This document shows positions 5,879 through 34,123 of a stretch of DNA of 64,000 nt, in pieces. The first letter of the stretch is position 1. Each line of letters starts with the position of its first letter. The position numbers and the translations under genes are program-made. Source of the stretch: a virus; the IMG/VR virus record IMGVR_UViG_3300020000_000010, positions 33,601-97,600 of that record; one strand, 5' to 3'. The notes beneath the pieces are model-generated. The model searched no databases. It saw nothing but the letters and a program-made list of their open reading frames with translations, and was not told where the DNA came from.

Positions 5879-7366
5879 CTAAATAATTTTCTTCAATCTT
5901 TCTCTAATTTCACTTAAAGAAGTTTGGTTATAAAATTTACCATCTTCAAAGATTGTTTGTAACAATCCCCCAGATTCTTCTTCTTGAGTACATTCTTGTT
6001 TTACATAGATCTGTTTTTTATCTTCAGATATATTAACCGCTAGTAATCCTTTTAACGATTTCTTAGTACCATCATCTGTTATAGGATCTTTATAAATATT
6101 AATTCCTTTACCATTATTTTCAAACCAAGCCCCTTTAGCCGCAAAACCAAAAGTATCTCTAGTATTATATTGATAAGTAAAAGAACCTACTCCTAATACA
6201 ATATTAGTAGCAGCAAAACCTTTAGTTGCTAATCTTTCATAGATTTGTACTTGTCTTTCTGTAGTAATAGAATCACCATAGATAGCTCCAATATGTGGAT
6301 CAAGAACTTTATATCCTTGCTCATTTACAGTTCCACCAAAAATATCCCAAAGAAGTTCTATTACTCCTTTAACTTCAGAGGTTCTTGGATTATCTAAATT
6401 ATGTGGAGAATCTGTACCACAAATAATATCTACAGGATCTCCAGAATCAGGTCTGATTACCAATTTACCATCTCTGGCTAAGATAAGTTTCTTAACTTTA
6501 GGATCAGCAATATACTCAGTAAGCAATTTCCATAGATCAAAAGTATCTGCTACAATTGAAAGAATTCCTTTTGGAAATTCTATTAACCAATCAATAATCA
6601 TTTGCTTTTCTCCAACTGTAAAAATTTTAGTTGTAGAAACAGAATGTTCAGAAGCATTTACTGAGTAAATACAAACTTTATCTTTTGGTTCATTATAAAA
6701 ATATCTTGCTCCTGGAATAACAATTAAAGTATCAGATCCACTATGGCTTGTAGCATGACCTAAACCACTAGATAACATATCCCAAGGAGATAGTCCTCTA
6801 GCAGAAAAATCATGGCACATATAATCAACTAACCAAAGATTAGCAGGATCTGTTTTCATTACCCACTCTATAGCATTTCTTTTATATTTTAAAGCTATAG
6901 TGGCAGAAGTACTTGGTTTCCATGCTAAACTACTAATTATTGTTTCAAGATATAAAGTTAACCATGCAAATCCATCAACGGTATTAATGAAAGTCATATG
7001 AGGAATATTAGGATCTGTTTCAATACCTTCAGGAAGAGCCTTAATTCTTATTGGCAAATATCCTAATGAATGTAAAGTATCAAAGTGTTTAGCATCATAA
7101 TCCATCATAAGATACATACTCATATCTTTTCCAAATTGTTGAGCTTCTTCTAAAGGTAATTTAAAGAAATTTTCTTCAAATTCATCCTTTAACCATATCA
7201 TAGTAAGTTGCTGACCACAAGAAACTATTTTAGTTACTCCTTTTGGAGCATATTTAGTACTTCTTGGAATCCAACTACCATATAGTTTAGTAGTTCCAGG
7301 AGCTAACATTTTTTTATGGCCCACTTTGTAACCATCAGTATAAAAAAGAGTGTTTGGTTTAAACAT
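5879..7366 (-). CDS. Nicotinamide phosphoribosyltransferase-family enzyme (Nampt/NadV-like, possibly Namat)
   Basis: TDGYKVGH, HDFSARG, ASEHS, SIVADTFD, VIRPDSGDP, IYGDSIT, GVGSFTYQYNTRDTFGFA, KDPITDDGTKKS. Confidence 0.92.
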   Translation of the reverse strand: MFKPNTLFYTDGYKVGHKKMLAPGTTKLYGSWIPRSTKYAPKGVTKIVSCGQQLTMIWLKDEFEENFFKLPLEEAQQFGKDMSMYLMMDYDAKHFDTLHSLGYLPIRIKALPEGIETDPNIPHMTFINTVDGFAWLTLYLETIISSLAWKPSTSATIALKYKRNAIEWVMKTDPANLWLVDYMCHDFSARGLSPWDMLSSGLGHATSHSGSDTLIVIPGARYFYNEPKDKVCIYSVNASEHSVSTTKIFTVGEKQMIIDWLIEFPKGILSIVADTFDLWKLLTEYIADPKVKKLILARDGKLVIRPDSGDPVDIICGTDSPHNLDNPRTSEVKGVIELLWDIFGGTVNEQGYKVLDPHIGAIYGDSITTERQVQIYERLATKGFAATNIVLGVGSFTYQYNTRDTFGFAAKGAWFENNGKGINIYKDPITDDGTKKSLKGLLAVNISEDKKQIYVKQECTQEEESGGLLQTIFEDGKFYNQTSLSEIRERLKKII

Positions 7367-7812: not shown

Positions 7813-8703
7813 TTAAAATATGTTTAATTGTTTTAATATTTTTGATCCTATAGAAATACCATCATATTCATTATATTTTGGAATATCATTATAACTATTT
7901 GTACAATAAATACCATCAAAATATTTGGATAATTCTTCATAACCCTTACTAAAAATACCATGAGTTACTATAAGATAGATTTTAGGACAACTGTTTCCAA
8001 TATAATGATCTTTTATCTCCTTTGCTATATTAATAAAGGTAGCACCACCATCACAAATATCATCTATTATAATAAGATCTTTATTTCCTAAATTGCTTAG
8101 AGGAACTACACATTTAGTTAATTTGCCATCTTTATCTCTTTCCTTAGAACAAATAATAATATCTCCTTCAAATTCAAAAGATTCAGCAACTTTATATATT
8201 TTCTTAGAAGCTCCTGCGTCAGGAGATATTAAAACCATTCTAGAATTACCTTCATTGGAATCATAATCATAAATTTCACTTAAAGCAAACTTAACTACTT
8301 CTTCATTAGATATTCTTAGAAAATTAGATTTAATACAAGCTTCTAATACATCTGAATGAGGGTCTAAACAAGTTATTGAATAAAAATTAAGACTATTTAA
8401 AATAGGACAAATAACATCTTTTAAATAGTTATTAGACCCTTCTTCAAACTTTCTATCACTCCTAGAACCTAATATATACGGAGAATATAAATTAATTCCC
8501 CTAACATTTAATCCTTTTAGTGATTTTACAGCACAAATTAATATTTCTAGATCAATAAAATTATTAATTCTTGTTTTAATTTCTATATATTCGTTTAAAA
8601 GAGTTTTATCTAAAATTGTTAATTGATTTTGACCATCTGGAAATTTAGAAATTTTATATTTAATATCTGATTTTTCTGGATAAACCAGATTTAATATTTT
8701 CAT
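7813..8703 (-). CDS. Ribose-phosphate pyrophosphokinase-family enzyme (Prs-like, possibly Adps)
   Basis: KFPDGQ, PYILGSRSDR, LDPHS, SPDAGASKK, IIDDICDGGATF, VTHGIFSKG. Confidence 0.92.
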   Translation of the reverse strand: MKILNLVYPEKSDIKYKISKFPDGQNQLTILDKTLLNEYIEIKTRINNFIDLEILICAVKSLKGLNVRGINLYSPYILGSRSDRKFEEGSNNYLKDVICPILNSLNFYSITCLDPHSDVLEACIKSNFLRISNEEVVKFALSEIYDYDSNEGNSRMVLISPDAGASKKIYKVAESFEFEGDIIICSKERDKDGKLTKCVVPLSNLGNKDLIIIDDICDGGATFINIAKEIKDHYIGNSCPKIYLIVTHGIFSKGYEELSKYFDGIYCTNSYNDIPKYNEYDGISIGSKILKQLNIF

Positions 8704-19074: not shown

Positions 19075-19150
19075 CAGATAGTATAGGAGTCGAACCTATA
19101 TCTTCTAACCCGTGAGATCTAATGCTTTATCCTAATTAAGCTAACTACCC
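19075..19150 (-). tRNA. tRNA-like RNA with a degenerate anticodon arm (best reading CAC), enclosed in an extra 10-bp stem
   Basis: Acceptor GGGTAGT/ACTATCT, D-arm GCTT/AAGC, T-arm ATAGG-TTCGACT-CCTAT. The anticodon stem pairs poorly. Confidence 0.65.
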
Positions 19151-20457: not shown

Positions 20458-21555
20458 TTATTTATTATTTATTTTATCATATATTTCATTCGTCATATTC
20501 TCTTTTTTAGGTAATTCTTTGAAAAACCCAGTAGCTCCATCAAAATATAAAGGAACATAAGCATTTGCTAATCCATAATGTCTATCTTTAAGAAACTTAA
20601 TAAATCTTACTTTATCCCCTAATTTTCTTATATCATAACCTCTATATTCTTCAATATTATATCTATTTGGTGCAAATATACCTAAAACTAAGTCTGCCTC
20701 TCTCTGAATTTCCTTATTATTTGCTAATCCATCTAAACTAGGTTCTATCTTTTCTTCATTTATTTCTCCTTTATAAAAGTCCTTTCTTTCTTTAGCAGCC
20801 TCTTGTTGTTGTAAAATTACTGTTACACAATTATATCTTTTACAAAAACCTTTTAAAGCATACTCTTTACTAAAATGTCCCATACTATTCCAAAGATCCA
20901 TTTTGATCCCATCTCTAGATTCTGGAGATAATAAATTTATAGAATCTACTACAACAAAATAGTAAGTATCTGGAAAATTATGTTTATAACCTATAACTAT
21001 ATCTCTTCCTTCTTTATCCTTTTTTGTTATATTTTCTCCTATTTCTGGATTTTCAAAATATTCTCTAACATTCTTATATATTCCAAATCCATTATGAATA
21101 TAATACATTACTTCTACATAGTTAGAAAGCTCATCTACAACTTTTTCACATTCTTTTACTCTAAGTAAATGTTCATCTGATATAATATAGTTTCCTAAAG
21201 ACTTTAATTGAGCTGTAGATAATATTATATTAAATTCTTCATATAACATTGAAGAAATAAAAGATAACCAGAATTCATCTTCTGTTTCCTCTAGAGCAAA
21301 ATATTTAATCCTAGCTTTTATATCAGGATTTACCTTTATAAAATTATATATATGGATAATAGTAAGATATTTACATAGTTTGGTTTTACCAATTCCAGAA
21401 TTAGCAGTTATAATTGTAAATTTACCTTTTTCCCAACCTGGATATTTTTCAGCTAATCTAGGAAAAGGAGGACTAATTGTTGTAGATTTACCTTCTTTCT
21501 TTAATTGCTGATTATTCTTAATCTTTTCATATAATATATCAAATGTCTTCCCCAT
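20458..21555 (-). CDS. DnaB-like replicative helicase
   Basis: ANSGIGKT, FALEE, VVVDSINLL, LQQQ, READLVLG, LKDR. Confidence 0.88.
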   Translation of the reverse strand: MGKTFDILYEKIKNNQQLKKEGKSTTISPPFPRLAEKYPGWEKGKFTIITANSGIGKTKLCKYLTIIHIYNFIKVNPDIKARIKYFALEETEDEFWLSFISSMLYEEFNIILSTAQLKSLGNYIISDEHLLRVKECEKVVDELSNYVEVMYYIHNGFGIYKNVREYFENPEIGENITKKDKEGRDIVIGYKHNFPDTYYFVVVDSINLLSPESRDGIKMDLWNSMGHFSKEYALKGFCKRYNCVTVILQQQEAAKERKDFYKGEINEEKIEPSLDGLANNKEIQREADLVLGIFAPNRYNIEEYRGYDIRKLGDKVRFIKFLKDRHYGLANAYVPLYFDGATGFFKELPKKENMTNEIYDKINNK

Positions 21556-22764: not shown

Positions 22765-24051
22765 TTAGGTTACTAAATCTTCTTTTACCTTAATAAAGCT
22801 AATTCCAGCTTCTGTTTGATGTTTATATTCAATAATAGCATCCCTATCAAAGAAACCAAAAGGAACAAGTTCCATTCTATTTTTTTTACATCTAGCAGAT
22901 TTCTTTTCTATTTTCTTTAGAAAGCTTTTAGTAGGATTAGGTATTTCTGTTACCATTCTCTTATATTCAGAAAATTTTCTAGCATAAGTTTCCTTAGCAA
23001 AAATATCAAAGTTAGTCCTAATATCATATTCAGATAATAAGATTAAATCAACATTTTCTTTAATTTTCTTAACATAGATCTCAAACCTAGTTTTAAAACT
23101 CATAACCTCTACAATATCTCCCTTTTTAAACTTATTAAAGGCTATATTAGTCACTAAAAGTATTTGGTTATAGTTATACTCAGTAATTGCTATTTTTAAT
23201 GGTAGAGCTACAGAATTCTCTTTTTTATTAAAGAATCTTCCTAAAGCATTTTTCATCCCATCTAATAATCCTTTACCTTCTTCTTCATCTTCAGAATCAT
23301 CTTCTATTTCATTATTTGGTAAAATAAGATTAGAATTATTAGTTTCTTCTTTTTTAGCTTTATGCTCTTCCTCTTTAGGAACTATTGGATTAAAAGTAGA
23401 TAATACAACCTTATCTTCAACTCCTCCTACATTCCTTATAGAAGAATTACAATATCCTTTATTAGAAAAGAAATATCCAGAATCTTCAATAAATCCTTGA
23501 GAACAAACTAAACCTTTATCTGGAAATAGAATAACAATCTTATTCCATCCTAAAAATCCTATATTATCAAATACCATATCAAACTCTTCAGTATCCTCTT
23601 TAAAGAACTCTAAAAGATGTTTATTATTCATAAATTCATGAACAAAATGATAAGTATCTGAATATACTGAATTTTTATAAGCATATTCTCCAAATATTCC
23701 ATTATGAGCTAAAGTAGGTTTACTTACCCAGCCTTCTAATGTTAATATCTCATCTTGCTTAGTAGAAATAACAAAAGGATGGCAATTTAAATCATCTGTT
23801 TTACCACTAGTTCCTATTCTCATATGAACCATTAATTCATCATCTAATTGTAAATCAGCCTCTTCTAAAGAATTTAATAGATTTTTAATACTAAAATATC
23901 CTTTAGATATAAAAACTTCTTTATCATTTCCTGCTTTTTTATAGGAATATCCCATTCCTTGTGTATTACTAATAGCACCAGATCTAATAGAATCTATAAA
24001 AAACTTACTATATTTTTCTGTTCCCTTAGGAGCAACACATATTAAACACAT
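22765..24051 (-). CDS. Class II (Ntn) glutamine amidotransferase-like protein with C-terminal extension
   Basis: N-terminal MC, NTQGMG, HMRIGTSG, NCHPF, AHNG, SDT. Confidence 0.85.
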   Translation of the reverse strand: MCLICVAPKGTEKYSKFFIDSIRSGAISNTQGMGYSYKKAGNDKEVFISKGYFSIKNLLNSLEEADLQLDDELMVHMRIGTSGKTDDLNCHPFVISTKQDEILTLEGWVSKPTLAHNGIFGEYAYKNSVYSDTYHFVHEFMNNKHLLEFFKEDTEEFDMVFDNIGFLGWNKIVILFPDKGLVCSQGFIEDSGYFFSNKGYCNSSIRNVGGVEDKVVLSTFNPIVPKEEEHKAKKEETNNSNLILPNNEIEDDSEDEEEGKGLLDGMKNALGRFFNKKENSVALPLKIAITEYNYNQILLVTNIAFNKFKKGDIVEVMSFKTRFEIYVKKIKENVDLILLSEYDIRTNFDIFAKETYARKFSEYKRMVTEIPNPTKSFLKKIEKKSARCKKNRMELVPFGFFDRDAIIEYKHQTEAGISFIKVKEDLVT

Positions 24052-25493
24052 AATATTTCTTTTACTGTTAATTGTTTTATACTTGATAATTTTTGTTTAC
24101 CATATTCTTTAGCTTCTTCTTTCTGAGCCTCTAAAGAAGTAAATAGTTCCTTTCTTTTTTCAAAGTATTCAATTAGTTTATGTGTTCTTTCATTATCTCC
24201 AAAACAACATTCTAAAATTAAAGGAATAGTAATCTTTTGTATACCTTTTTCAGATTCAAAATATTCATTTTCTATCTCTTTTTGATAGTTTTCAACAAAT
24301 GATACAAAGGCTATACAAAATAATAACCAATTTTTAACTTTAACAAAGTTTGTAGTACCAGAATGGCATCTAAACTCTAAAGTATATGATTCATTTTCTC
24401 TAGTGTTAAATAAACATGGTATAAAATTTAACCAAGCATATCTAATATTAGAATGATCATAACCTACTTTAGCTCCTTTAGGATGATTAGTCTTTTTATT
24501 TAACTTATCATCAGGATTATATTTACATGCTTTTTTAAATATTTCATTGTAAATATCTGATAACCAGATATTATACTCTATTTTATTAGTTGTTTTACCT
24601 AAATACTTCTTTTCATATAAATTAGGTAACATCTGGCAATAGGTTGATCTAGACCTACTTGGAGGTAAATATTGAAATAAATCCTTTTGAATAGCCAATC
24701 CTAGTTTATAGGCAAAGACTATAAAAGTCTTATTAAAATCTATATTTCCTAGATGAATATGAATACTCGTTTTCTTGTCTACAGTACATCTTTTTGATAG
24801 TTCCATACATATCTTCTGAAGATGTAATAAACCATTATTACCTGAAAGAATTCCAGTAATATATTCTCCTGAAATAGGATCTCCTCCGCCTTCAGGTCTC
24901 AAAGATCCATCATATTCACAAGATATATTTAAATCATTCTCTAGGTATTCTGGAATATATCCAGAAGCTGTTTCTAGCTCTACTCCAAAAGTATACTTTT
25001 TATTTCCTGTTAATAGAAAATTATTATTTTTCTCAGGAAGGTTTGGATATGTATTATTAAAAGTTCTATATTTAGCAGATCCAGCATAATAGTTTGAAAT
25101 ATATTTTAAATACTCTTCCTCAAGAGGTATAGGATAGAAAAATCCCCATTTTAAATCCTCTCTAATATTTTCATCTTTAAAAACATCTCTAGAAATATAA
25201 GCAAAACTATTATTTCCAATATATAATAAAGGATACTTTTTAGCCTTACTACTATAAAACTCATCAAGAATCTTAATAGCGTTTTTTTCTAAAGTATAAG
25301 AATGTACTATAGGATTTAATTTATATTTTTTTGTTAATACTCCTGTTTCAACATCTAGAACTTCTGTATCATCTAAACCTTTATAAAGGGCTTTTTCATT
25401 CATTTCTTTCTTATTAAATATTTTTAAAAAATAATTGAAAAACTTAAATATCAACATGTTCTTCTTGTTGAGAAGCTTCTGTAATAATTTCAT
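24042..25493 (-). CDS. Putative amidoligase (glutamine synthetase/GCS-like COOH-NH2 ligase); start may be 25403
   Basis: FGVELE, YDGSL, EYIT, SIHIH, RYAWLN, TLEFR. Confidence 0.85.
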   Translation of the reverse strand: MKLLQKLLNKKNMLIFKFFNYFLKIFNKKEMNEKALYKGLDDTEVLDVETGVLTKKYKLNPIVHSYTLEKNAIKILDEFYSSKAKKYPLLYIGNNSFAYISRDVFKDENIREDLKWGFFYPIPLEEEYLKYISNYYAGSAKYRTFNNTYPNLPEKNNNFLLTGNKKYTFGVELETASGYIPEYLENDLNISCEYDGSLRPEGGGDPISGEYITGILSGNNGLLHLQKICMELSKRCTVDKKTSIHIHLGNIDFNKTFIVFAYKLGLAIQKDLFQYLPPSRSRSTYCQMLPNLYEKKYLGKTTNKIEYNIWLSDIYNEIFKKACKYNPDDKLNKKTNHPKGAKVGYDHSNIRYAWLNFIPCLFNTRENESYTLEFRCHSGTTNFVKVKNWLLFCIAFVSFVENYQKEIENEYFESEKGIQKITIPLILECCFGDNERTHKLIEYFEKRKELFTSLEAQKEEAKEYGKQKLSSIKQLTVKEILCV

Positions 25494-27054
25494 TAAATTC
25501 TAGTTTAATAGTATCTCTTAAAGCCTCTATTCCTTCTTTAACCATTAGAATTTCAGCAGAACTCATAATATAGTTTTCTGTTCCTATCTTTGAGGATTCT
25601 ATAACCTTAAGAATATTATCTAAACTAATAATAGCAGCTTCTTCAACTTCTTTTACTTTTTCCACATTTATTTTTTTTGTTTTATTATTCTTTTTTTTTT
25701 CTATCTTTTCTAGATAATCTTTTATTTCATCTTTAGAAGCAGGTCTTAGATAAGTATCATTAACAACAACACTTCTTCCTGTTAATTCATTTCTAATATC
25801 TCTTCTATTATCATGATTATGAACCATGATTTTACAAATATCTCCTTTATTTACAGCAGGTTTATCCTTATCTTCACCATCAACATATACTAGACTACTT
25901 GTTACAAACACATATATAATATCATTAAGATTATACATTTCATTATAATAAAACCAGAAGGGATTTACTTTAACTCTATCTAATTTCTCATCAATAATAT
26001 AGACTTCTTCTAAATTTTTATCATTATTAAGTTTAGCTACTCCAGTACAGAAATACCAGTTATCTCTTATTAAAGAAATATCTTGTCCTCCAGCTCTAGT
26101 AGTTGTTGCTTGACACTTTAACCATCTATTAACTACTTCTTTTCCTCTATAAGTATATTGTAGATTAAAAGTTTTTATAGGAGTAGAAATAATAGGTTTC
26201 TGTTCTACAAAAGAGTTATTATTATGATTTTCTCCTTGTAGTTCTTCTAACCATTCATCATAATGATTATTTCTATTTCTCCAATTATTATTAGTATTAG
26301 TTTTTGGTAAAATTCCAGGAAAAGGCTTTTTAGCTATTTTAAACTGGTTTTTTACTTTACCATTCTTAATAATATATAAATAGTCTTCTTTAAACTCTAT
26401 AATATTCTTACAGTTTATTGATTTTAAAGATTTCTCTATAGAAGAAATATACATTCCTTCGTCTCCTATACCTCTATATAAAGGTCTTTCTTTGTTTCTA
26501 TATACATAAAGAGTATCGGGAGTATTTGTATCTGTAAAAATTAATGCTGCTGCTCCTTCAAATTTACTTAAACAGTATAAATTCTGTTCTTTATTTAAAG
26601 ATGCTGCTAGTATCATACTATCTACATCATAATCTCTACTAGATAAACCTAGGTTGCCACAAAGTATCCAGGGATTATCTAAAGTTCCATTATGTGCTAA
26701 AACAATATTACCATATTGAAAAGGATGAGCATTATTAAGGCTATTAACACCATAAGTTGCTTGTCTAACATGTCCTATTAATACACTATCTTGTTGTATT
26801 TCATTATAGAAGTCTGAAGTAATATATTCGCTAGATTTCTTTAATGATTTCTTTATTCCTGTTTTAGGAGTATAAATGCCTGTAGCATCTTTACCTCTTT
26901 CTTCATTCCAGAATAATAATTGAGCTATTTTACTTTTATCAAAGAGATAATCTATAGCTGAAAACCCAACTAGACCACAGCCTAATTGGGATTGAAGTTT
27001 TTTAGATCCAAAGATAAATTGAATAAAATAACTTATTGTTATTAATAATAACAT
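25444..27054 (-). CDS. Class II (Ntn) glutamine amidotransferase with a 25-aa N-terminal leader
   Basis: CGLVG at residue 26, RGKDATG, GHVRQAT, NAHPF, AHNGTL, VDS, RNKERPL. Confidence 0.88.
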   Translation of the reverse strand: MLLLITISYFIQFIFGSKKLQSQLGCGLVGFSAIDYLFDKSKIAQLLFWNEERGKDATGIYTPKTGIKKSLKKSSEYITSDFYNEIQQDSVLIGHVRQATYGVNSLNNAHPFQYGNIVLAHNGTLDNPWILCGNLGLSSRDYDVDSMILAASLNKEQNLYCLSKFEGAAALIFTDTNTPDTLYVYRNKERPLYRGIGDEGMYISSIEKSLKSINCKNIIEFKEDYLYIIKNGKVKNQFKIAKKPFPGILPKTNTNNNWRNRNNHYDEWLEELQGENHNNNSFVEQKPIISTPIKTFNLQYTYRGKEVVNRWLKCQATTTRAGGQDISLIRDNWYFCTGVAKLNNDKNLEEVYIIDEKLDRVKVNPFWFYYNEMYNLNDIIYVFVTSSLVYVDGEDKDKPAVNKGDICKIMVHNHDNRRDIRNELTGRSVVVNDTYLRPASKDEIKDYLEKIEKKKNNKTKKINVEKVKEVEEAAIISLDNILKVIESSKIGTENYIMSSAEILMVKEGIEALRDTIKLEFNEIITEASQQEEHVDI

Positions 27055-27074
27055 ATTTTTATTTGTTTTATAGA

Positions 27075-27976
27075 TTATAAATCTTCAAGATCTCTCATTC
27101 TTGCTCTATGATGTTCTAAGATATTTTGCATTGCTTCTTGTTGCCTTCTTTCTATTTCATTTGCTTCTCTAAATTCTACATCATTATTGATTACAAGAGG
27201 TTCTACTGGTGGTACAACTCCATCAAAAAATCTAACAGGATTATAAATTCTAGCCTCAGGTTCTAGGTAAATATCTTGCATTAAATCTTTAATATAACTT
27301 TCATTAAATTTCGCAAAAGCACTATTCTTATCCTTTTTCTTATTTAAATCAGGAACAGGAATCTTATATTTCTTAATTAGTTTTTCTGCTAATTCTTTAT
27401 CTTGAGTGTTAATACAAGAAACTATATTTTCTTTTTCTTTTTCTATTAATTTATCAAAATTCTTATTGTTATTAATAAAATCAATAGCATTATGGACATT
27501 GTTGAATACCCATTCTATTAGGTTATCATTAAAGATCCAGAAGTTGCTTAATACCCTAAATTCTAAGCCAAACTTTGGGAATCTTATTTCTCCAGCTTTA
27601 CCATACATTTTCCTTCTTTCTTTATCTTCATCATAAAGAATAGAAGGTACTCCTAAAAATAAATCAAAAGCTTTTGCAATTCTTAAACTATCATCTAAAT
27701 TAGGATTATCATATCCACAGTGCAAATGTCCGCCCGAACATCTGTAGTTACCATTAGGTTTTGGAGATCTGTTTTCACAACATTCCCAAGCATTAATAGA
27801 TCCTTCACAACCAAAAATTTTTGCTTGTTTATGCTCTAAATATTTAGGATCAAATTCAGCACTAGGAGAAGGATCAATAACCAAAGTATTTGGTAGTTTA
27901 TTCTTTCTTACATAATCTAAAACATAATTTATAGAGGCTATTAACTCTTCACTACTCCTACTTGGAGGTATATTAA
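27075..27976 (-). CDS. phiEco32-like COOH-NH2 ligase type 2, exon 2
   Basis: Frame is open from 27976 (..NIPPSRSS..), with FGCE, RCSGGHLHCG, RRKMYGKAG and EFRVLSNFW. Confidence 0.9.
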
Positions 27977-28131
27977 CAACTAGTTTCTTTCTAGCCAGAC
28001 TATCCCTTCATCCCTAAGGATGGATCTATTATAGTCGTTGCACGTCTCTTTATTTAATATATCATCAAATAAACAATCACATTTTTTCCTTGTTTATTTT
28101 CAATATTAAAATAGATTTCGCTCAGGATTCC

Positions 28132-28968
28132 TTACGCTGGTTCCCTGAATTTAAGATCTTTTTTTAATTTATAATTACTTATAAACTGAGCTTTAAGATA
28201 TTTTCTTTCTAGATAAATATCTGCGTTTTTATATAAAAATTCGATTAACATTTTACAATTTACAAAATTTATAATATGTATTCGATATAAATTTTTATAT
28301 AAATATAGTCTGTTTTTAATTAAATTATCATCAAAAAATTTTTTAATTTTATCAATAAATAATTTACTTGCAGAAACTATACTTATACAACAATTATACT
28401 CTTTTTTGTTTTTGTTTTTAAAAAAAGAAATACAACCATCTCCGTCTATTACTCCTCTTAAAAAATCCCAAGTTATTGGTATTTTTATATCAAGAGTTTT
28501 AGATTTATTTCTGGTTATTCCTAAATTTATAAGAAAATTAGTAACACTTATAGAAGAAAAACTAAAATTAGACATAAAGTGTCCTTTATATTTAGAATGT
28601 TCTGTTTTATAAATAGGCAAATTACTATTTATAAAAATTTTATATTTTTCAATATGTTCTAAATCTTTGGAATTTAATCCTAAAGTTATTCTATTTCTAT
28701 AAATTCCGCCATCTGTTGCTAATAATCCTAACCAATATTGAGTTTCTCTATCCTCTAAATTAATGAATGGATTATGTTTTACATTTCTTATTTTATCCAT
28801 TCCTCTTCTTCTATTAGAATCGGCTCTTTCTTTTATATTATTCCAAACATTATATTTAATACAAATATCTTTAAGTGTCTCATATGCAACCTTATATTTA
28901 TATTTAATATCCTGAATGTTTACTTTATCATTATAATCTTTAATTAAATCTTCCTCTCTTCCAACCAT
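28132..28968 (-). CDS. Double-motif LAGLIDADG homing endonuclease
   Basis: YWLGLLATDGGI and FLRGVIDGDGCI, plus YLERKY. Lies inside the intron. Confidence 0.93.
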   Translation of the reverse strand: MVGREEDLIKDYNDKVNIQDIKYKYKVAYETLKDICIKYNVWNNIKERADSNRRRGMDKIRNVKHNPFINLEDRETQYWLGLLATDGGIYRNRITLGLNSKDLEHIEKYKIFINSNLPIYKTEHSKYKGHFMSNFSFSSISVTNFLINLGITRNKSKTLDIKIPITWDFLRGVIDGDGCISFFKNKNKKEYNCCISIVSASKLFIDKIKKFFDDNLIKNRLYLYKNLYRIHIINFVNCKMLIEFLYKNADIYLERKYLKAQFISNYKLKKDLKFREPA

Positions 28969-28987
28969 TTTTTATTAATTTTGACCA

Positions 28988-29019
28988 CAAAGATAACTAT
29001 AATTTTTCACAAAAACAAA
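28988..29019 (-). promoter_or_regulatory. Intron-internal Bacteroidota-type promoter for the endonuclease
   Basis: Minus strand TTTG-N20-TATCTTTG, about 20 nt upstream of the ATG at 28968. Confidence 0.8.
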
Positions 29020-29045
29020 TTTTTATATAGTTATTTAATTAGTTT

Positions 29046-29232
29046 ACTCTCCTGCTACCCCATCTTCCTGTAAAGCATATCCTGTTTTTCCTTCAGGACT
29101 TATATCAATTGGTTCTTTTTTAGTACCTCCTATTAATCCAATTGCAGGGATAAATTCCCCGGTATTCTTATTCTTTAAAAAAAACTCAGGATCTCCTCCT
29201 ATAGTTATATTTTCAATTTTATTTCTACTCAT
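29046..29232 (-). CDS. phiEco32-like COOH-NH2 ligase type 2, exon 1 (spliced product 362 aa)
   Basis: TIGGDPEFFL, GLIGGTKKEP, LQEDGVAGE. Confidence 0.9.
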
Positions 29233-29237
29233 ATTAA

Positions 29238-29870
29238 TTATTCTTTATTTAATAATTCTAACACTAATCCTTGCATATATTTTACTGTATCACAGTTTAG
29301 ATCCATCCATTCAGGATGAGATTGTATTCCTAAACATTTAGTTTTAGGAAAGAATATAATCTCTACTTCTTTCTTATCTTTCATATCTATTTCTTCATCC
29401 TTACCATTTAAATAAGTATGAGAGAAGTTTGGTGCCCAACCAAGTATTTGAAAGTCTTCTTCTGGAAGATTATAAGGATAGGCCATCTGATGATGAGAAC
29501 TTGTTACAGGTAATATTTTACCATCAAAAGTAAGAATATTATGTGAGGAGTTATGAGACATATGCTGGATTAACTTGCCAGAATTCATAACTACTAAAAA
29601 TTGATTTCCTCTACAAGCCCCTAGGCATGGGATTTTCAACTCTAAAGCCTTATTAAAACATATTTGTTCAAAATCATCTCTCCTTTTATTAAAAGAAGTA
29701 TATTTTCCTTTCTGTTCTCCATAAAGTTCTGGACATATATCTTCTCCTCCTGTAAATAGTACAAGATCTGCTTCTTCTAGCTTACTAGCAAAGATATAAC
29801 CTATTGGATGTAACCAATTAGCATAATCTAAAGAATTTCCTACTACATATACTTTTTTTTTATTGCTCAT
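29238..29870 (-). CDS. Class I glutamine amidotransferase / peptidase C26 (PuuD-like)
   Basis: FTGGEDI.P..Y, RD, GACRGNQ, SSHHQ, QSHPE. Confidence 0.9.
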   Translation of the reverse strand: MSNKKKVYVVGNSLDYANWLHPIGYIFASKLEEADLVLFTGGEDICPELYGEQKGKYTSFNKRRDDFEQICFNKALELKIPCLGACRGNQFLVVMNSGKLIQHMSHNSSHNILTFDGKILPVTSSHHQMAYPYNLPEEDFQILGWAPNFSHTYLNGKDEEIDMKDKKEVEIIFFPKTKCLGIQSHPEWMDLNCDTVKYMQGLVLELLNKE

Positions 29871-30525
29871 TTATTCCTTCCATTATTTTTTTATATTTAC
29901 CTTGTTTATATAGTTCTCTAAGTTCATTAAAGTTTTGTTCTTCTTTATTATTAAAAAAACTATGAATATTTGTATGATTTGCTTTTAATAGTAAATCAAA
30001 TAAATCTTCAGGTTTATCATAGAATTTAGCTTCTCCACTAACCAAAGCATGATTACTATTATAAATACTAAAAGAAGTACTATAATGAGCTAATATCAAA
30101 AGATTTAATTTATTTATATCTTCTATTTCTTCTATTAACCTAAACCATTCTTCAATTATAGGTTTTGAAGTATTTTCATATAAATATCTAAGTAAAGTTA
30201 AAGTTATCTTTAAAATTATAGGATTTTTATCATTAATAACTTTAATTCCAAAATATTTTTTATTATTATGAATAATATCTCCTAATATTTCAGATTCAAA
30301 TCCTAATTCTTTTAATAAATTTATATACTTTTCTGTATCTTCTAAAGAATATTCACAATATTTATCTTGGATATGATTTTTATACCTATCTATTAGTAAA
30401 GTTACATATTCTATATTTTTTAAAGTATCACTATGAAAAATAACTCTAAAACAAATATTATCAATATCTGCTCTTTCTACCTCTTCTCCGTTATGTTTAT
30501 ATAAAAAACTAGTGCTGTAACTCAT
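29860..30525 (-). CDS. Hypothetical protein within the amidoligase cluster
   Basis: Overlaps both neighbours, with LLRYLYE and NSNH. Confidence 0.65.
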   Translation of the reverse strand: MSYSTSFLYKHNGEEVERADIDNICFRVIFHSDTLKNIEYVTLLIDRYKNHIQDKYCEYSLEDTEKYINLLKELGFESEILGDIIHNNKKYFGIKVINDKNPIILKITLTLLRYLYENTSKPIIEEWFRLIEEIEDINKLNLLILAHYSTSFSIYNSNHALVSGEAKFYDKPEDLFDLLLKANHTNIHSFFNNKEEQNFNELRELYKQGKYKKIMEGINEQ

Positions 30526-31369
30526 ATTTCTTCATTAGAATTTTAGGAATTTGTTCTTTGTATTTTTGTAAAGTAATTTCACCAAAGCTGGGAGCTGATG
30601 CAGACTCGCAAATATTCCATTTAGGATTATCTCTTTCTTCCCCATTTTTAGATCCTTGAACCATAACGTCAAAAGCTCCAATATCCAATTTTAGAGATTT
30701 TAATGCTTTAACACAATCTTCTACAATTAAATTCCAGTTATTAGGTTTTTTAAATGTAGGATTACTTTCTAAAGCCCAAGAACAAACACTATCATGTTTT
30801 TGCCAAGTGCCTTCAGGAGCATCATTTTTAAGCAATTTCCTACATGTATAAAAACAACCATCTTCTGTAATATGAAGCCTATATTCTCTAAAATATTTTA
30901 CAAAAACTTCCAGTATATAGTTATTCATATCTTTGTCTCTCATCCAAGTTTCTAATTCTTGTTGAGTATCCAATTTATAATTTCCTGTGCCTCTAGAACC
31001 ATAGATATGCTTAGCTATAATTGGATATGGTAGTTGTGAAATATTTGTAATATTATTAGGATTATTTTCTTTAACAAAAGATCCTTCGTTATTTTTAACC
31101 CACCAATCTGCTGTTTTTACTTTTTCATTTGTAAAACAGTTTTTCATCCTAAACTTATTAGCAGAATTTCTAACTCCTTCTATAGAGTTACATTCAATTC
31201 TATCAGCTTCAGCATTAGTAGTACTTCCTAACCTTACCACAGACCTAAAAGGAAAGTATCCTAAAGCTCCTTTTTCTCTAAGAGGGCTATGTGATCCATG
31301 CCTGGATAGGATTAATGGCCTGAATTTAGTAAAAACCTTATTTAAAGGTTTCTTTTTATTTTTTATCAT
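30509..31369 (-). CDS. ATP-grasp ligase (RimK/YheCD-like)
   Basis: NK, PIIAK..GSRGTG, EYRLH, GAFDV, ICESASAPS. Confidence 0.85.
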   Translation of the reverse strand: MIKNKKKPLNKVFTKFRPLILSRHGSHSPLREKGALGYFPFRSVVRLGSTTNAEADRIECNSIEGVRNSANKFRMKNCFTNEKVKTADWWVKNNEGSFVKENNPNNITNISQLPYPIIAKHIYGSRGTGNYKLDTQQELETWMRDKDMNNYILEVFVKYFREYRLHITEDGCFYTCRKLLKNDAPEGTWQKHDSVCSWALESNPTFKKPNNWNLIVEDCVKALKSLKLDIGAFDVMVQGSKNGEERDNPKWNICESASAPSFGEITLQKYKEQIPKILMKKYELQH

Positions 31370-32063
31370 TGAATATTAATTTAAAATTTTTTCTATAATC
31401 TTTATATTCTATTCCTGTTTTAGTATCTACTGTTGTAATTATAGAAGATCTTTTAGGATAACCCATAGGATTAAGACCATCAATCTTTATAATAACCCTA
31501 CTAATAGATTTATCTATTTTATCATCTATTCCTTTATATCTAACTACTCTGTTTATTTTATATGTTTTATCTCTTTTAGGTTCTCTATTTAGGTTAGGAC
31601 TAATATATTCACACTCAGAATGTAAAAAAGTTAAATTACCATATTCTGTTTCTATTACCAAACAATCTAAAGTCTTATTTAGCTTTTTACTATGTTTAGC
31701 TTCATCTCTTTTATAGTTAGAATATATTTTATTAGTACAATTCTTTTTCTTTATTCTAAATCCATATACTTCCGCACTTTCTTTATAATCTAATACTTTT
31801 ACTTTATTAAATAAAGGACTTAAATCTTTTTGTTGAGCTGTAGGTAATTCTTGTATTCTTGAACTTTCTATACAAACATATTCAAAAAGATTACTATTTA
31901 TCCTACAATAAACAAAGCTTTTATCTTGTACTCCTATTTCTTTAACATCTTTAATAAAGATACAATATAAACTAGAAGAAATATTTACTCCTAATTTTAA
32001 TTCACAGGACATTGTAAATTCGTTTGTAACTTTATAATTAATAATATCTCCTTTTTTTATCAC
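31356..32063 (-). CDS. Hypothetical protein
   Basis: 235-aa ORF between PolB and the ATP-grasp gene. Confidence 0.6.
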   Translation of the reverse strand: MIKKGDIINYKVTNEFTMSCELKLGVNISSSLYCIFIKDVKEIGVQDKSFVYCRINSNLFEYVCIESSRIQELPTAQQKDLSPLFNKVKVLDYKESAEVYGFRIKKKNCTNKIYSNYKRDEAKHSKKLNKTLDCLVIETEYGNLTFLHSECEYISPNLNREPKRDKTYKINRVVRYKGIDDKIDKSISRVIIKIDGLNPMGYPKRSSIITTVDTKTGIEYKDYRKNFKLIFNDKK

Positions 32064-32065
32064 AA

Positions 32066-34123
32066 TTATCCAAATATTAATTCTTGTTGTTTATTCTCTT
32101 CTTTTTTATTTTCTATATTTCCTTTTTCAATTAAATTGATTATTTTATAACATTCGTTAAAATAAAAATCATATTTAATCTTGTAATTAGCTGGATGTAA
32201 ATCAGTTACCATATTTAAAATAGTAACTTTTTCATTAGCAATCATAGAAATTAGTTGTTCTTTTTCTACTTCTTCTAAATCAAATATAGATATCTGATTA
32301 GAATTATCCTCTTTTTTAGCTATTTTCTTTCGTTTAAAGATATATCCTCCTTCTTCTGATATAAAGTACCTATTTGTTTTTTGAAGTGATTCTATAGAAG
32401 ATTTTCCATATTTATCAAAAATATGTAATTCTGCTTTCATTTCTCCTCCTACTTTTTGAGAAGCACAAAAATCTAATATATCTTCTGAACTTAGGATAGT
32501 TTCTTCAATAGGTATTTCATTAACAAAATATTCTTTTAGGGCCTTATAGATAATAGCAAAATCTGTAGATTTGTTTATTGTTTTTTCTGTTTCAAAGTCT
32601 CCTTTTTCTTTAACTTTTCTAGTAACAATTCCAGATACTCTATCTTTTGTTTCTGAAATAGCATAATAACAGTTTATATCTCTAAAAATTAAGGATTTAT
32701 ATTCTCCTACTTCTAGTTCAAATCCTGTTTTATTTTGCCAATTACCAAGAATATCATAATATAAACCTATTTTTGATTCATTAACTATACATTCTATACC
32801 ATCAGTATTTGAGCTAATAACTTTAATTCCATAGTTTTCTAAATCTTCTATTAGCATTAATAGAAAGAACTGACAATTAATAGTTACCCTATATGCTGCT
32901 AAAGGATCATATAACCAAGAGAATTTAGATAGAAATTTACCAAAAAAGGAATTAATGACAATCTTTAATCCTTCAGATTCTGATACTCTTTTGTTCTTTT
33001 TAGCCTCTAATCTTTTATTTTTGATATTATTTATTACTTCTACAATCCTATTATTTAAATGATTAGGATATATATTATTATTAATAATATTACTAGGGTA
33101 ATAGGATACTACATCACATGTTAAGATCTTATTTAACCTTTCTTTTTCATCTATTGTTTGATTATATATACTGGGTTTAGTTTCTGAGTGTAATCCTCCT
33201 AATCCTACTACATGAGTTGTAGAACCTATTGTGATCTTGCCTAATTCATTAGATTTTCCATCTCCTTCTTTAGAAGATTCTCCTACTTTTATAGTTTTTC
33301 TTGCTATTTCTTTAAGAAAATTATTTAAGCTAGAGCTTTTAAATTTAATATTACCATAAAATAAAATATCAGAAATATGTATATTCTCTCTTATTGTTCT
33401 TTTATCTTTAAAATCTTCTAAGGATAATCCAGATATAATACTATACTCTTTTTCAAGTATTTTATTACATATAGAAGAATTACTTTCATTCATAAGGTTT
33501 AACCCATAGAACTTACTTAAATCCTTCCTGAGAGTTAATATCTCATTAGAATATTCTCTTAATCTGTTTGTTATTAATACATCATTTTCATTATATTCTA
33601 ATATAAGATCTATCTGTTCTTCCTTAATTTCACTATCAAAAGGAATAGGAAGATCTTGTATTTTAGGCCATTTTAGATTAACAGCACATGCTTTTAGTGA
33701 TTTATAAGGTACTTTATCTAAATATAGTACCTTTTGTAGGTTTATTGTATTAAATAAATTGTGATATTTATATTTGCTTAATCTGTTTAATCCTGTTTTT
33801 TGAATTATATCATTTGAAAATAACCATAGATTATAACATAAATCTAGATAGTTATTATATTTTTTGCTATTTATAGTTAACCATGAGATAATTAAATCAT
33901 CATAGTTAGAATTATTATAACCACATAACCAAAGATCTTTAGTATTTAGAATAAAGCTTTCTAAATCTAAATATTCATTCTTCCTTAATGAAATCTCAAA
34001 TACTTTTTTATCTAAGGTTATGTGGTTATAAAAGGTCACACAAAATAAATTCCTATAAACCTCCACATCATAACACCAAAGGTTATTATTTTTTTCTACC
34101 ATTTTTAAAGTTTTTCTTACCAA
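32066..34123 (-). CDS. polB: Family B DNA polymerase
   Basis: Exo I YDVE, Exo II GYNNSNYDD, Exo III YNENDV; polymerase motifs DVVSYYP, KIVINSFFGK and NTDG. Confidence 0.93.
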   Translation of the reverse strand: MVRKTLKMVEKNNNLWCYDVEVYRNLFCVTFYNHITLDKKVFEISLRKNEYLDLESFILNTKDLWLCGYNNSNYDDLIISWLTINSKKYNNYLDLCYNLWLFSNDIIQKTGLNRLSKYKYHNLFNTINLQKVLYLDKVPYKSLKACAVNLKWPKIQDLPIPFDSEIKEEQIDLILEYNENDVLITNRLREYSNEILTLRKDLSKFYGLNLMNESNSSICNKILEKEYSIISGLSLEDFKDKRTIRENIHISDILFYGNIKFKSSSLNNFLKEIARKTIKVGESSKEGDGKSNELGKITIGSTTHVVGLGGLHSETKPSIYNQTIDEKERLNKILTCDVVSYYPSNIINNNIYPNHLNNRIVEVINNIKNKRLEAKKNKRVSESEGLKIVINSFFGKFLSKFSWLYDPLAAYRVTINCQFFLLMLIEDLENYGIKVISSNTDGIECIVNESKIGLYYDILGNWQNKTGFELEVGEYKSLIFRDINCYYAISETKDRVSGIVTRKVKEKGDFETEKTINKSTDFAIIYKALKEYFVNEIPIEETILSSEDILDFCASQKVGGEMKAELHIFDKYGKSSIESLQKTNRYFISEEGGYIFKRKKIAKKEDNSNQISIFDLEEVEKEQLISMIANEKVTILNMVTDLHPANYKIKYDFYFNECYKIINLIEKGNIENKKEENKQQELIFG

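Follow-up and report, generated by a model that had tools for sequence, protein, structure and literature searches.

A seven-gene array in the replication module

The 64,000-nucleotide stretch of viral DNA analysed here (the window) comprises bases 33601-97600 of a 97.6-kb IMG/VR virus record that is complete by CheckV estimate. On its minus strand, a gapless run of intact open reading frames (ORFs) extends from position 31369 down to 22765 and encodes, in this order, an ATP-grasp ligase, a 221-amino-acid (221-aa) protein, a class-I glutamine amidotransferase (GATase) of the C26 type, a COOH-NH2 ligase, an N-terminal-nucleophile (Ntn) GATase, an Amidoligase_2 protein and a second Ntn protein. 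The array is co-directional and tight, and neighbouring genes overlap or nearly touch. No terminator-like site was found on the coding strand within it, and a scan for sigma-70 promoters returned 108 sites against 109 expected, which is the chance level. The initial annotation had described a contiguous seven-gene block between the genes for family-B DNA polymerase (PolB) and a helicase; each assignment was checked and the order was confirmed. Judged from its sequence, the block represents the phiEco32/LUZ24-type phage amide-ligase cassette in a copy that is intact and looks expressed, located in the replication module. The features of the cassette are as follows.

30509-31369, minus strand: ATP-grasp ligase, RimK-family-like, 286 aa (PHROG 2599, 6e-23)
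29860-30525, minus strand: 221-aa protein of a cassette-linked family (exhaustive phmmer and positional profile)
29238-29870, minus strand: class-I glutamine amidotransferase/Peptidase C26, 210 aa (Pfam Peptidase_C26, 1.5e-17)
29046-29232, minus strand: COOH-NH2 ligase type 2, exon 1 (PHROG 3815, 2e-10; tblastn with g039 of Cellulophaga phage phi14:2)
27977-29045, minus strand: group-I-like intron, 1,069 nucleotides (nt) (interruption of the homology blocks)
28132-28968, minus strand: LAGLIDADG homing-endonuclease ORF in the intron, 278 aa (LAGLIDADG_3, 5e-9; PHROG 4645 endonuclease, 5e-41)
27075-27976, minus strand: COOH-NH2 ligase type 2, exon 2 (Pfam PF14395, 5e-8; PHROG 3815, 9e-46)
25444-27054, minus strand: Ntn (class II) GATase, 536 aa (Pfam GATase_6, 3e-15)
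24042-25493, minus strand: Amidoligase_2, glutamine-synthetase-like, ORF of 483 aa (Pfam PF12224, 1.2e-9; PHROG 2443)
22765-24051, minus strand: second Ntn amidohydrolase, 428 aa (Met-Cys start; AlphaFold2 (AF2) model, pLDDT 73)

The cassette encodes three ATP-dependent carboxylate-amine ligases, namely the RimK-like ATP-grasp enzyme, the GCS2-like COOH-NH2 ligase and the glutamine-synthetase (GS)-like Amidoligase_2, together with three glutamine or gamma-glutamyl amidohydrolases that use a Cys nucleophile, one of the C26/class-I type and two of the Ntn type. The 10-kb block found no match among cultured phages by megablast.

Catalytic residues of the cassette enzymes

Catalytic residues were checked in alignments of 23 to 80 homologues from related viral loci, with attention to columns conserved in at least 85% of the sequences. 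All known catalytic and metal-binding columns are kept in the window proteins, the sole exception being the Asn of the ATP-grasp ExN motif. The degeneracy of catalytic residues that had been considered with the initial annotation comes down to this one position, which is an Ala in the window.

The ATP-grasp protein has no Pfam match, and phmmer found no match to it in the PDB. A profile built from 48 homologues matched PurT, PurK, Ddl, cyanophycin synthase, RimK and LysX in the PDB, with E values down to 2e-8, and the NCBIfam model rimK_fam matched at 3.5e-6 with 26.6 bits, below its cut-off of 143. The protein keeps K72, K120, the glycine-rich loop G124-S-x-G-x-G129, E162-x-R164, D234 and E255; two Lys residues, a glycine-rich loop, an ExR motif and an acidic residue are features of the superfamily (PMC4431377). 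The terminal metal-binding ExN motif reads E255-S-A257 (window 30599-30607). Across the 48 homologues this position is Asn in 37, Cys in 8 and Ala in 2, the window protein being one of the two. Cys or Ala stands at this position in the nine homologues closest to the window protein (50-62% identity; loci L036, L040, L009, L077, L015, L068, L038, L010 and L005), and the remaining active site is kept throughout this sub-clade. The replacement looks like a tolerated change rather than decay.

The class-I GATase matches Peptidase_C26 with 64.6 bits against a cut-off of 20.5, Pfam GATase at 1.7e-5 and PHROG 7218 at 1e-36. Its Cys86-His185-Glu187 triad, within GxCxGxQ and HPE motifs, is kept and is conserved in at least 85% of 69 homologues. 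The nearest NCBIfam families are gamma-glutamyl-X hydrolases (PuuD and gamma-glutamyl-CDP-amidate hydrolase) and not ammonia-channelling subunits.

The Amidoligase_2 protein matches PF12224 with 38.8 bits against a cut-off of 22, and 74-79% of its neighbours in the Atlas are Amidoligase_2 proteins. It keeps E172, E174, H245, H247, E373, R375 and H377. Its ORF overlaps the upstream Ntn GATase gene by 50 nt, and the true start may be a later ATG.

An intron in the COOH-NH2 ligase gene

The COOH-NH2 ligase (PF14395, 32.9 bits against a cut-off of 25) is encoded in two exons, which were placed by tblastn with three uninterrupted homologues. Joining the exons restores the conserved AEF|NIPP motif exactly, with the final T of exon 1 completing the Phe codon. 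The spliced protein has 362 aa, is 42-46% identical to its counterparts in the uncultured phage cr108_1 and in Leptolyngbya phage Lbo-JY46, and keeps E16, E62, H146, H148, E201 and R203 in spliced numbering. About 90 additional C-terminal residues (window 27075-27350, minus strand) are absent from the cr108_1, phi14:2 and Lbo-JY46 proteins; related COOH-NH2 ligase ORFs in viral loci mostly have 256-286 aa compared with the 362 aa here.

The intervening sequence has a U before the 5' splice site and a G at its end. Its 3' part folds with a z score of -2.25 and contains a GACUAU...AUAGUC pairing like that of the group I P7 core. No match to Rfam Intron_gpI was obtained, either at gathering thresholds or at E values up to 1. 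Interruptions occur elsewhere among the relatives: a LAGLIDADG ORF lies within the amidoligase gene of L029 (L029:12889-13869), matches are split for the amidoligase in L009 (6142-7842) and for the ATP-grasp gene in L013 (4240-5579), and a split PolB is seen in L013, L049, L062 and L066. Introns seem to be frequent in this phage group.

Two Ntn proteins with a common layout

The 536-aa Ntn GATase is modelled by AF2 (pLDDT 79) as a 25-aa hydrophobic leader followed by a glutaminase domain, two SH3-like barrels and helices. The model aligns with the glutaminase domain of GlmS (1xff) over 211 residues (VIA Z 26.7, root-mean-square deviation (rmsd) 2.4), and the superposition places residue 26 on residue 1 of the 1xff chain. 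C26, R97, N122-G123 and D145 are invariant in 51 Ntn GATase sequences. The 428-aa protein, which the initial annotation had called a second Ntn GATase, has the Met-Cys start, the GlmS/GFAT matches and the EgtC match that bear out this assignment. It consists of an Ntn domain (residues 1-205), a disordered acidic linker and an SH3-like barrel (residues 292-353). Its model matches the GFAT/GlmS glutaminase (Foldseek 8e-6; VIA with 1xff, Z 14.5, 187 residues, rmsd 4.5), its Pfam GATase_4 match has an E value of only 0.12, and C2, R78, N117-G118 and D132 do not vary among 23 homologues. Both proteins have EgtC among their top structural matches, with Z values of 23.1 for the 536-aa and 13.6 for the 428-aa protein.

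In the predicted models, both Ntn proteins share one layout of glutaminase domain, disordered linker, SH3-like barrel or barrels and helices, which is a new detail. The SH3-like matches of the two proteins have Z values of 5-9 (6.5-8.9 for the 536-aa protein), a level that VIA itself calls common. Neither model carries a fused synthase domain, so the partner must act in trans.

The catalytic Cys of the 536-aa protein is residue 26, with no start codon directly before it. The leader that abuts it (window 26980-27054, minus strand; 25 aa) is hydrophobic and then basic. Similar leaders of 23-48 aa are present in 27 of 73 Ntn GATase homologues, including that of phi14:2 (further examples are found in L004, L007, L009, L018, L022, L028, L053 and others), and the other 46 start with Met-Cys. 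The leaders are alike in properties and not in sequence: the best 15-residue segment has a median hydropathy of 2.6, and the stretch after it contains two Lys/Arg but no acidic residue. These features suggest a transient membrane anchor or a self-cleaved propeptide. An Ntn glutaminase requires a free N-terminal Cys, and leader-bearing GATases are therefore predicted to be processed. Freeing the Cys would take a self-cleavage like that of Bacillus PurF, the known precedent for a propeptide before the catalytic Cys; we know of no precedent for a membrane-anchor-like propeptide on such an enzyme.

A cassette-linked family in the second position

No homologue of the 221-aa protein was found in Pfam, PHROG or NCBIfam, or by tblastn or word-based searches; its profile gave nothing credible against the PDB, and the Atlas model is of low confidence and uninformative. 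Exhaustive phmmer searches recovered 14 distant relatives with E values of 1e-6 to 1e-3. In 6 of the 7 loci hit, the matches lie inside the cassette, and in L029, L036 and L040 they occupy exactly the slot between the ATP-grasp and class-I GATase genes. A profile of the slot proteins of relatives, which takes in the families of cr108_1 gp029 and gp030, scores the 221-aa protein with 26 bits (E 3e-8), clearly at the top of the 116 window ORFs. Cys25, Arg113, His147 and His159 are invariant. By profile and position, the 221-aa gene is a member of a cassette-linked family and not an orphan, a detail added by this analysis.

The cassette in related viruses

A scan of IMG/VR with an alignment of the COOH-NH2 ligase confirmed at least 546 relatives, of which 80 loci were kept; a scan of viral contigs with the single amidoligase protein gave nothing, and relatives were reached only with an alignment. 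The window proteins, gamma-glutamyl cyclotransferase (GGCT) and further neighbours from annotated relatives were mapped onto the kept loci. The genes do occur together in these loci, in a recurrent co-directional order: optional GGCT, ATP-grasp, optional slot proteins or a second C26 protein, C26 GATase, COOH-NH2 ligase, Ntn GATase, amidoligase and an optional second Ntn. The cassette of the relatives lies beside helicase or PolB genes, and the same families, order and strand recur in dozens of independent viral contigs. The earlier assignment to a phiEco32-type cluster is upheld by these shared core families, order and strand.

Among the 52 loci with complete flanks, the COOH-NH2 ligase is present in all 52, the Ntn GATase in 51, the amidoligase in 49, the ATP-grasp ligase in 46, the class-I (C26) GATase in 43, GGCT in 30 and the second Ntn in 16. 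The exact family set of the window is found in four loci, and its order between PolB and helicase recurs in L018, L028, L029, L036, L040, L038 and L066. The Ntn GATase and amidoligase genes are at most 30 nt apart in 55 of 63 loci, the C26 GATase and COOH-NH2 ligase genes in 37 of 63, and the second Ntn gene follows the amidoligase gene within 30 nt in 23 of 24. With GGCT in only 30 of the 52 loci, it is an optional member of the cassette; no GGCT/AIG2 match (PF06094) was obtained in the complete 97.6-kb genome, and nine control genomes match. Wherever the four-gene core is present, it is accompanied by C26, GGCT or the second Ntn, or by more than one of them, which hints that the three substitute for one another.

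The cassette has already been annotated in cr108_1 (gp028-gp034), phi14:2 (g037-g041), Lbo-JY46 and Xanthomonas phage DES1, and in the LUZ24-like phage UFV-P2 as ORF21-29 (PMC3890496). Later papers trace the system, where they refer to it, to a comparative-genomics prediction made in 2009 (Iyer, Abhiman, Burroughs and Aravind; cited in PMC10580990, PMC11706807 and PMC7824862). As related in PMC3517423, PMC10580990 and PMC11706807, the prediction was of cell-wall modification, secondary metabolites or superinfection immunity. No experimental identification of a product was found in the literature; the papers of 2012-2025 give none and cite only the 2009 prediction, in agreement with the initial annotation.

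Genome setting

The window has a G+C content of about 26%. It encodes a terminase, a portal and a major head protein (PHROG families), and its replication genes are those for family-B DNA polymerase, DnaB-like helicase, a Sak4-like protein and primase. The best protein matches of the cluster are in the Crassvirales phages cr108_1 (Steigviridae) and phi14:2, and the genome is therefore read as that of an uncultured crAss-like phage. A host among the Bacteroidota is probable. The flanks of the cassette are as follows.

32066-34123: PolB
31356-32063, minus strand: 235-aa ORF between PolB and the ATP-grasp gene, overlapping the ATP-grasp start by 14 nt
20458-21555: DnaB-like helicase

Small ORFs lie between the cassette and its flanks, the 235-aa ORF on the PolB side and ORFs of 71, 80, 31 and 201 aa on the helicase side. 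For the 235-aa ORF, the 83 related loci contain no homologue, and its one Pfam match is below threshold (ApeA_NTD1, E 0.0037); it was not counted as a cassette member. The small downstream ORFs were considered as possible LysW-like carriers and set aside; they have neither Cys pairs nor an acidic C-terminal tail.

Elsewhere in the window, a nicotinamide phosphoribosyltransferase gene (5879-7366, minus strand; PHROG 448, 2.5e-158) lies near a ribose-phosphate pyrophosphokinase gene (7813-8703, minus strand; PHROG 619, 1.3e-56), and together they resemble a module for NAD+ salvage. In Lbo-JY46, PncB and PrsA lie immediately upstream of the cassette copy. A tRNA match (19075-19150, minus strand; 43.8 bits, Rfam) between the primase gene and a 181-aa ORF is the sole RNA family in the window at Rfam gathering thresholds.

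A proposed build-and-trim chemistry

We favour the reading, with a probability of roughly 0.55, that this phiEco32/LUZ24-type module carries out gamma-glutamyl or amide build-and-trim chemistry on a small acceptor. Gamma-glutamyl chemistry is favoured because of the fold pairings, the nearest families of the class-I GATase and the EgtC matches. Enzyme pairs of the same folds act in gamma-glutamyl pathways: the GS-like PuuA with the C26 protein PuuD, the GCS-like EgtA with the Ntn protein EgtC, the ATP-grasp enzyme BtrJ with the GGCT-like BtrG, and the GCS GshA with the ATP-grasp GshB. In the proposed scheme, the GS-like and GCS-like ligases would couple an amine to a glutamate-type carboxylate that they have activated, and the ATP-grasp enzyme would add a further residue, following the logic of GshA and GshB in glutathione synthesis. 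The coupled Ntn GATase and amidoligase would work as one unit, which would feed glutamine-derived ammonia to the ligase or pass on an amine carried by a gamma-glutamyl group. The interchangeable extra hydrolases (C26 and the second Ntn; GGCT in relatives) would strip gamma-glutamyl groups in the manner of PuuD, EgtC and BtrG. The outcome, formed during phage replication, would be a small amide or peptide derived from glutamate or glutamine, or a host molecule that bears such a group.

The initial annotation had taken two ligase-GATase pairs to indicate two successive amidation steps. This may be so, but only the Ntn GATase-amidoligase pair is near-obligate (the 55 of 63 loci given above). The class-I GATase is missing from 9 of the 52 complete loci and is apparently interchangeable with GGCT. 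Because the class-I GATase is dispensable in those 9 loci and appears to be interchangeable with GGCT, which cannot supply ammonia, the idea of two successive amidations is weakened.

Several points weigh against the build-and-trim proposal. We infer the chemistry solely from distant family resemblance, and the matches of the class-I GATase to gamma-glutamyl hydrolases lie far under the NCBIfam curated cut-offs. The activity of the ATP-grasp enzyme is not certain, since it lacks the Mg-binding Asn of the ExN motif. The pattern behind the substitution among extra hydrolases is statistically weak: about two loci with none of the three would be expected by chance against the zero seen, and the loci are not phylogenetically independent.

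Alternative functions

The initial annotation had named the cell envelope, a protein, a nucleotide and a small metabolite as possible targets. Envelope modification is doubtful, although it has a real chance of being right. GATase-ligase pairs with the ATP-grasp enzyme would amidate or extend carboxylates of peptidoglycan precursors or of another envelope component, with MurT/GatD, AsnB/LtsA and D-aspartate ligase as analogues, and the benefit could be superinfection exclusion or lysis control. Cell-wall modification was the suggestion of the 2009 analysis according to PMC10580990. Of the 308 cultured-phage records that have a COOH-NH2 ligase, the ten most frequent groups all consist of phages that infect Gram-negative hosts, and the same holds for all 60 sampled rows that name a host; this host range supports the envelope more than the leader does. 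A hydrophobic-basic leader is carried by 27 of 73 Ntn GATases and is consistent with a transient membrane anchor, but it is absent from the other 46. The SH3-like barrels on both Ntn proteins include a weak match (Z 5.8) to the SH3b of a gamma-D-glutamyl-L-diamino-acid endopeptidase, yet such Z values are common by VIA's own account. Further evidence points away from the envelope. In the mapped loci and annotated relatives, the cassette has no linked gene for a Mur ligase, a transpeptidase or a lipid carrier, the class-I GATase matches C26 and not the GatD-type GATase_3, and amidoligase and GATase pairs are reported in viruses of archaea without peptidoglycan (PMC11706807). Modification of a protein is distinctly unlikely. 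Here a protein of the host or the phage would receive glutamate or another residue from the RimK-like ATP-grasp enzyme and the ligases, and the hydrolases would trim the addition, the models being RimK acting on ribosomal protein S6 and LysX acting on the carrier LysW. The PHROG and NCBIfam labels of the ATP-grasp protein point to the RimK family, but the rimK_fam score is the sub-cut-off one given above. The ExR motif sets the enzyme among peptide-bond-forming clades (PMC4431377). The SH3-like barrels could dock proteins, the 221-aa family could supply a scaffold or substrate, and a virus of a haloarchaeal symbiont is reported to have a LysW carrier, an ATP-grasp enzyme and a standalone glutaminase domain; near the window cassette, however, neither a small LysW-like carrier nor a protein with an acidic tail is present. 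To our knowledge, all GS-like and GCS-like ligases whose substrates are known act on small molecules.

Nucleotide or DNA hypermodification, in which the cassette would decorate a base or the nucleotide pool, would explain its constant place among replication genes, and we regard it as very improbable. The cassette always adjoins PolB, helicase, primase or uracil-DNA glycosylase (UDG) genes, and the top NCBIfam match of the class-I GATase acts on a nucleotide-linked glutamine, gamma-glutamyl-CDP-amidate. Two routes into phage base hypermodification are known to us, through a ThyA-family pyrimidine hydroxymethylase and through TGT/DpdA, but the complete genome has neither ThyA-family hydroxymethylase (PF00303) nor TGT/DpdA (PF01702), for which control genomes match. 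The cassette proteins showed no domain of nucleic-acid-binding or glycosylase type, and we know of no reported modified bases in the well-studied carriers phiEco32 and LUZ24. That the cassette is a decaying or partly inactive remnant, put out of action here by its intron, by the masking of the catalytic Cys and by the loss of the ExN Asn, is scarcely credible. The ATP-grasp Asn is indeed an Ala, Cys26 of the Ntn GATase is not N-terminal and the COOH-NH2 ligase gene is interrupted. Against this, all ORFs are intact with the catalytic residues otherwise kept, the intron junction restores a conserved motif exactly, the leader recurs in 27 homologues with conserved physico-chemical properties, and the Asn replacement is common to the nine most similar homologues (50-62% identical), which fits tolerance under selection.

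A more specific combination, in which the cassette acts at the inner membrane on an envelope precursor, is unlikely. It would bring together a self-cleaving anchored Ntn GATase, docking SH3-like barrels and the Cys/Arg/His/His slot family as a new enzyme or scaffold. The Ntn GATase would be a membrane-anchored pro-enzyme that frees its catalytic Cys just after the transmembrane-like leader, a leader present in 27 of 73 homologues from several lineages, and the tandem SH3-like barrels would dock the enzyme to its target or partner. If this were true, a widespread module, in the phages sampled here found only in those of Gram-negative hosts, would remodel the envelope by means of a self-activating amidotransferase of a new kind.

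Whichever acceptor is used, the cassette is among the most widespread phage enzyme modules without a product in the literature, with at least 546 viral contigs and 308 cultured-phage records that have the COOH-NH2 ligase. Discovery of the product would explain a function common to crAss-like, phiEco32-like and LUZ24-like phages. The window adds the Ntn GATase-amidoligase pair as a near-obligate unit, seemingly interchangeable gamma-glutamyl-type hydrolases, the Cys-masking leader on many Ntn GATases and a further cassette-specific protein family. The window phage itself is uncultured; cultured carriers exist in phi14:2, LUZ24 and phiEco32.

Comparison with known systems

The build-and-trim proposal has its closest functional parallels in pathways where a ligase is paired with a C26, Ntn or GGCT remover of gamma-glutamyl groups: GshA/GshB in glutathione, PuuA/PuuD in putrescine, EgtA/EgtC in ergothioneine and BtrJ/BtrG in butirosin metabolism. 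No orthology has been shown for the window proteins, whose scores are far below the family cut-offs, and the intervening oxidases, the sulfoxide synthase and the carrier protein of those pathways are absent from the window. The likeness may indicate a way of working and not membership of these pathways. The lipid II amidotransferase MurT/GatD is a two-subunit enzyme that amidates a carboxylate at the membrane with glutamine and ATP, the logic proposed for the Ntn GATase-amidoligase pair. The folds differ, being a Mur ligase and GATase_3 in MurT/GatD but GS/GCS-like ligases and Ntn/C26 GATases in the window.

In gene content, the cassettes of cr108_1 and phi14:2 share the window order of ATP-grasp, slot proteins (where present), class-I GATase, COOH-NH2 ligase, Ntn GATase and amidoligase. 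The profile that picks out the 221-aa protein was built from relatives that cluster with the cr108_1 slot proteins gp029 and gp030. In both phages the cassette comes after primase and is followed by UDG, whereas in the window it occupies the PolB-helicase interval and ends with the second Ntn; phi14:2 has GGCT and lacks the class-I GATase, and neither phage has the ligase intron. The cassette of the phiEco32 and LUZ24-PaP3-tf phages has, like that of the window, four core families (COOH-NH2_lig type 2, Amidoligase_2, Ntn GATase and ATP-grasp) arranged co-directionally beside replication genes. Unlike it, the window lacks GGCT/AIG2 and adds a second Ntn amidohydrolase with an SH3-like tail, a member of the cassette-linked family, whose proteins have about 220-330 aa, a ligase intron and a hydrophobic leader on the Ntn GATase. 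By families, order and strand, the window cassette is a further copy of the known cassette with lineage-specific additions.

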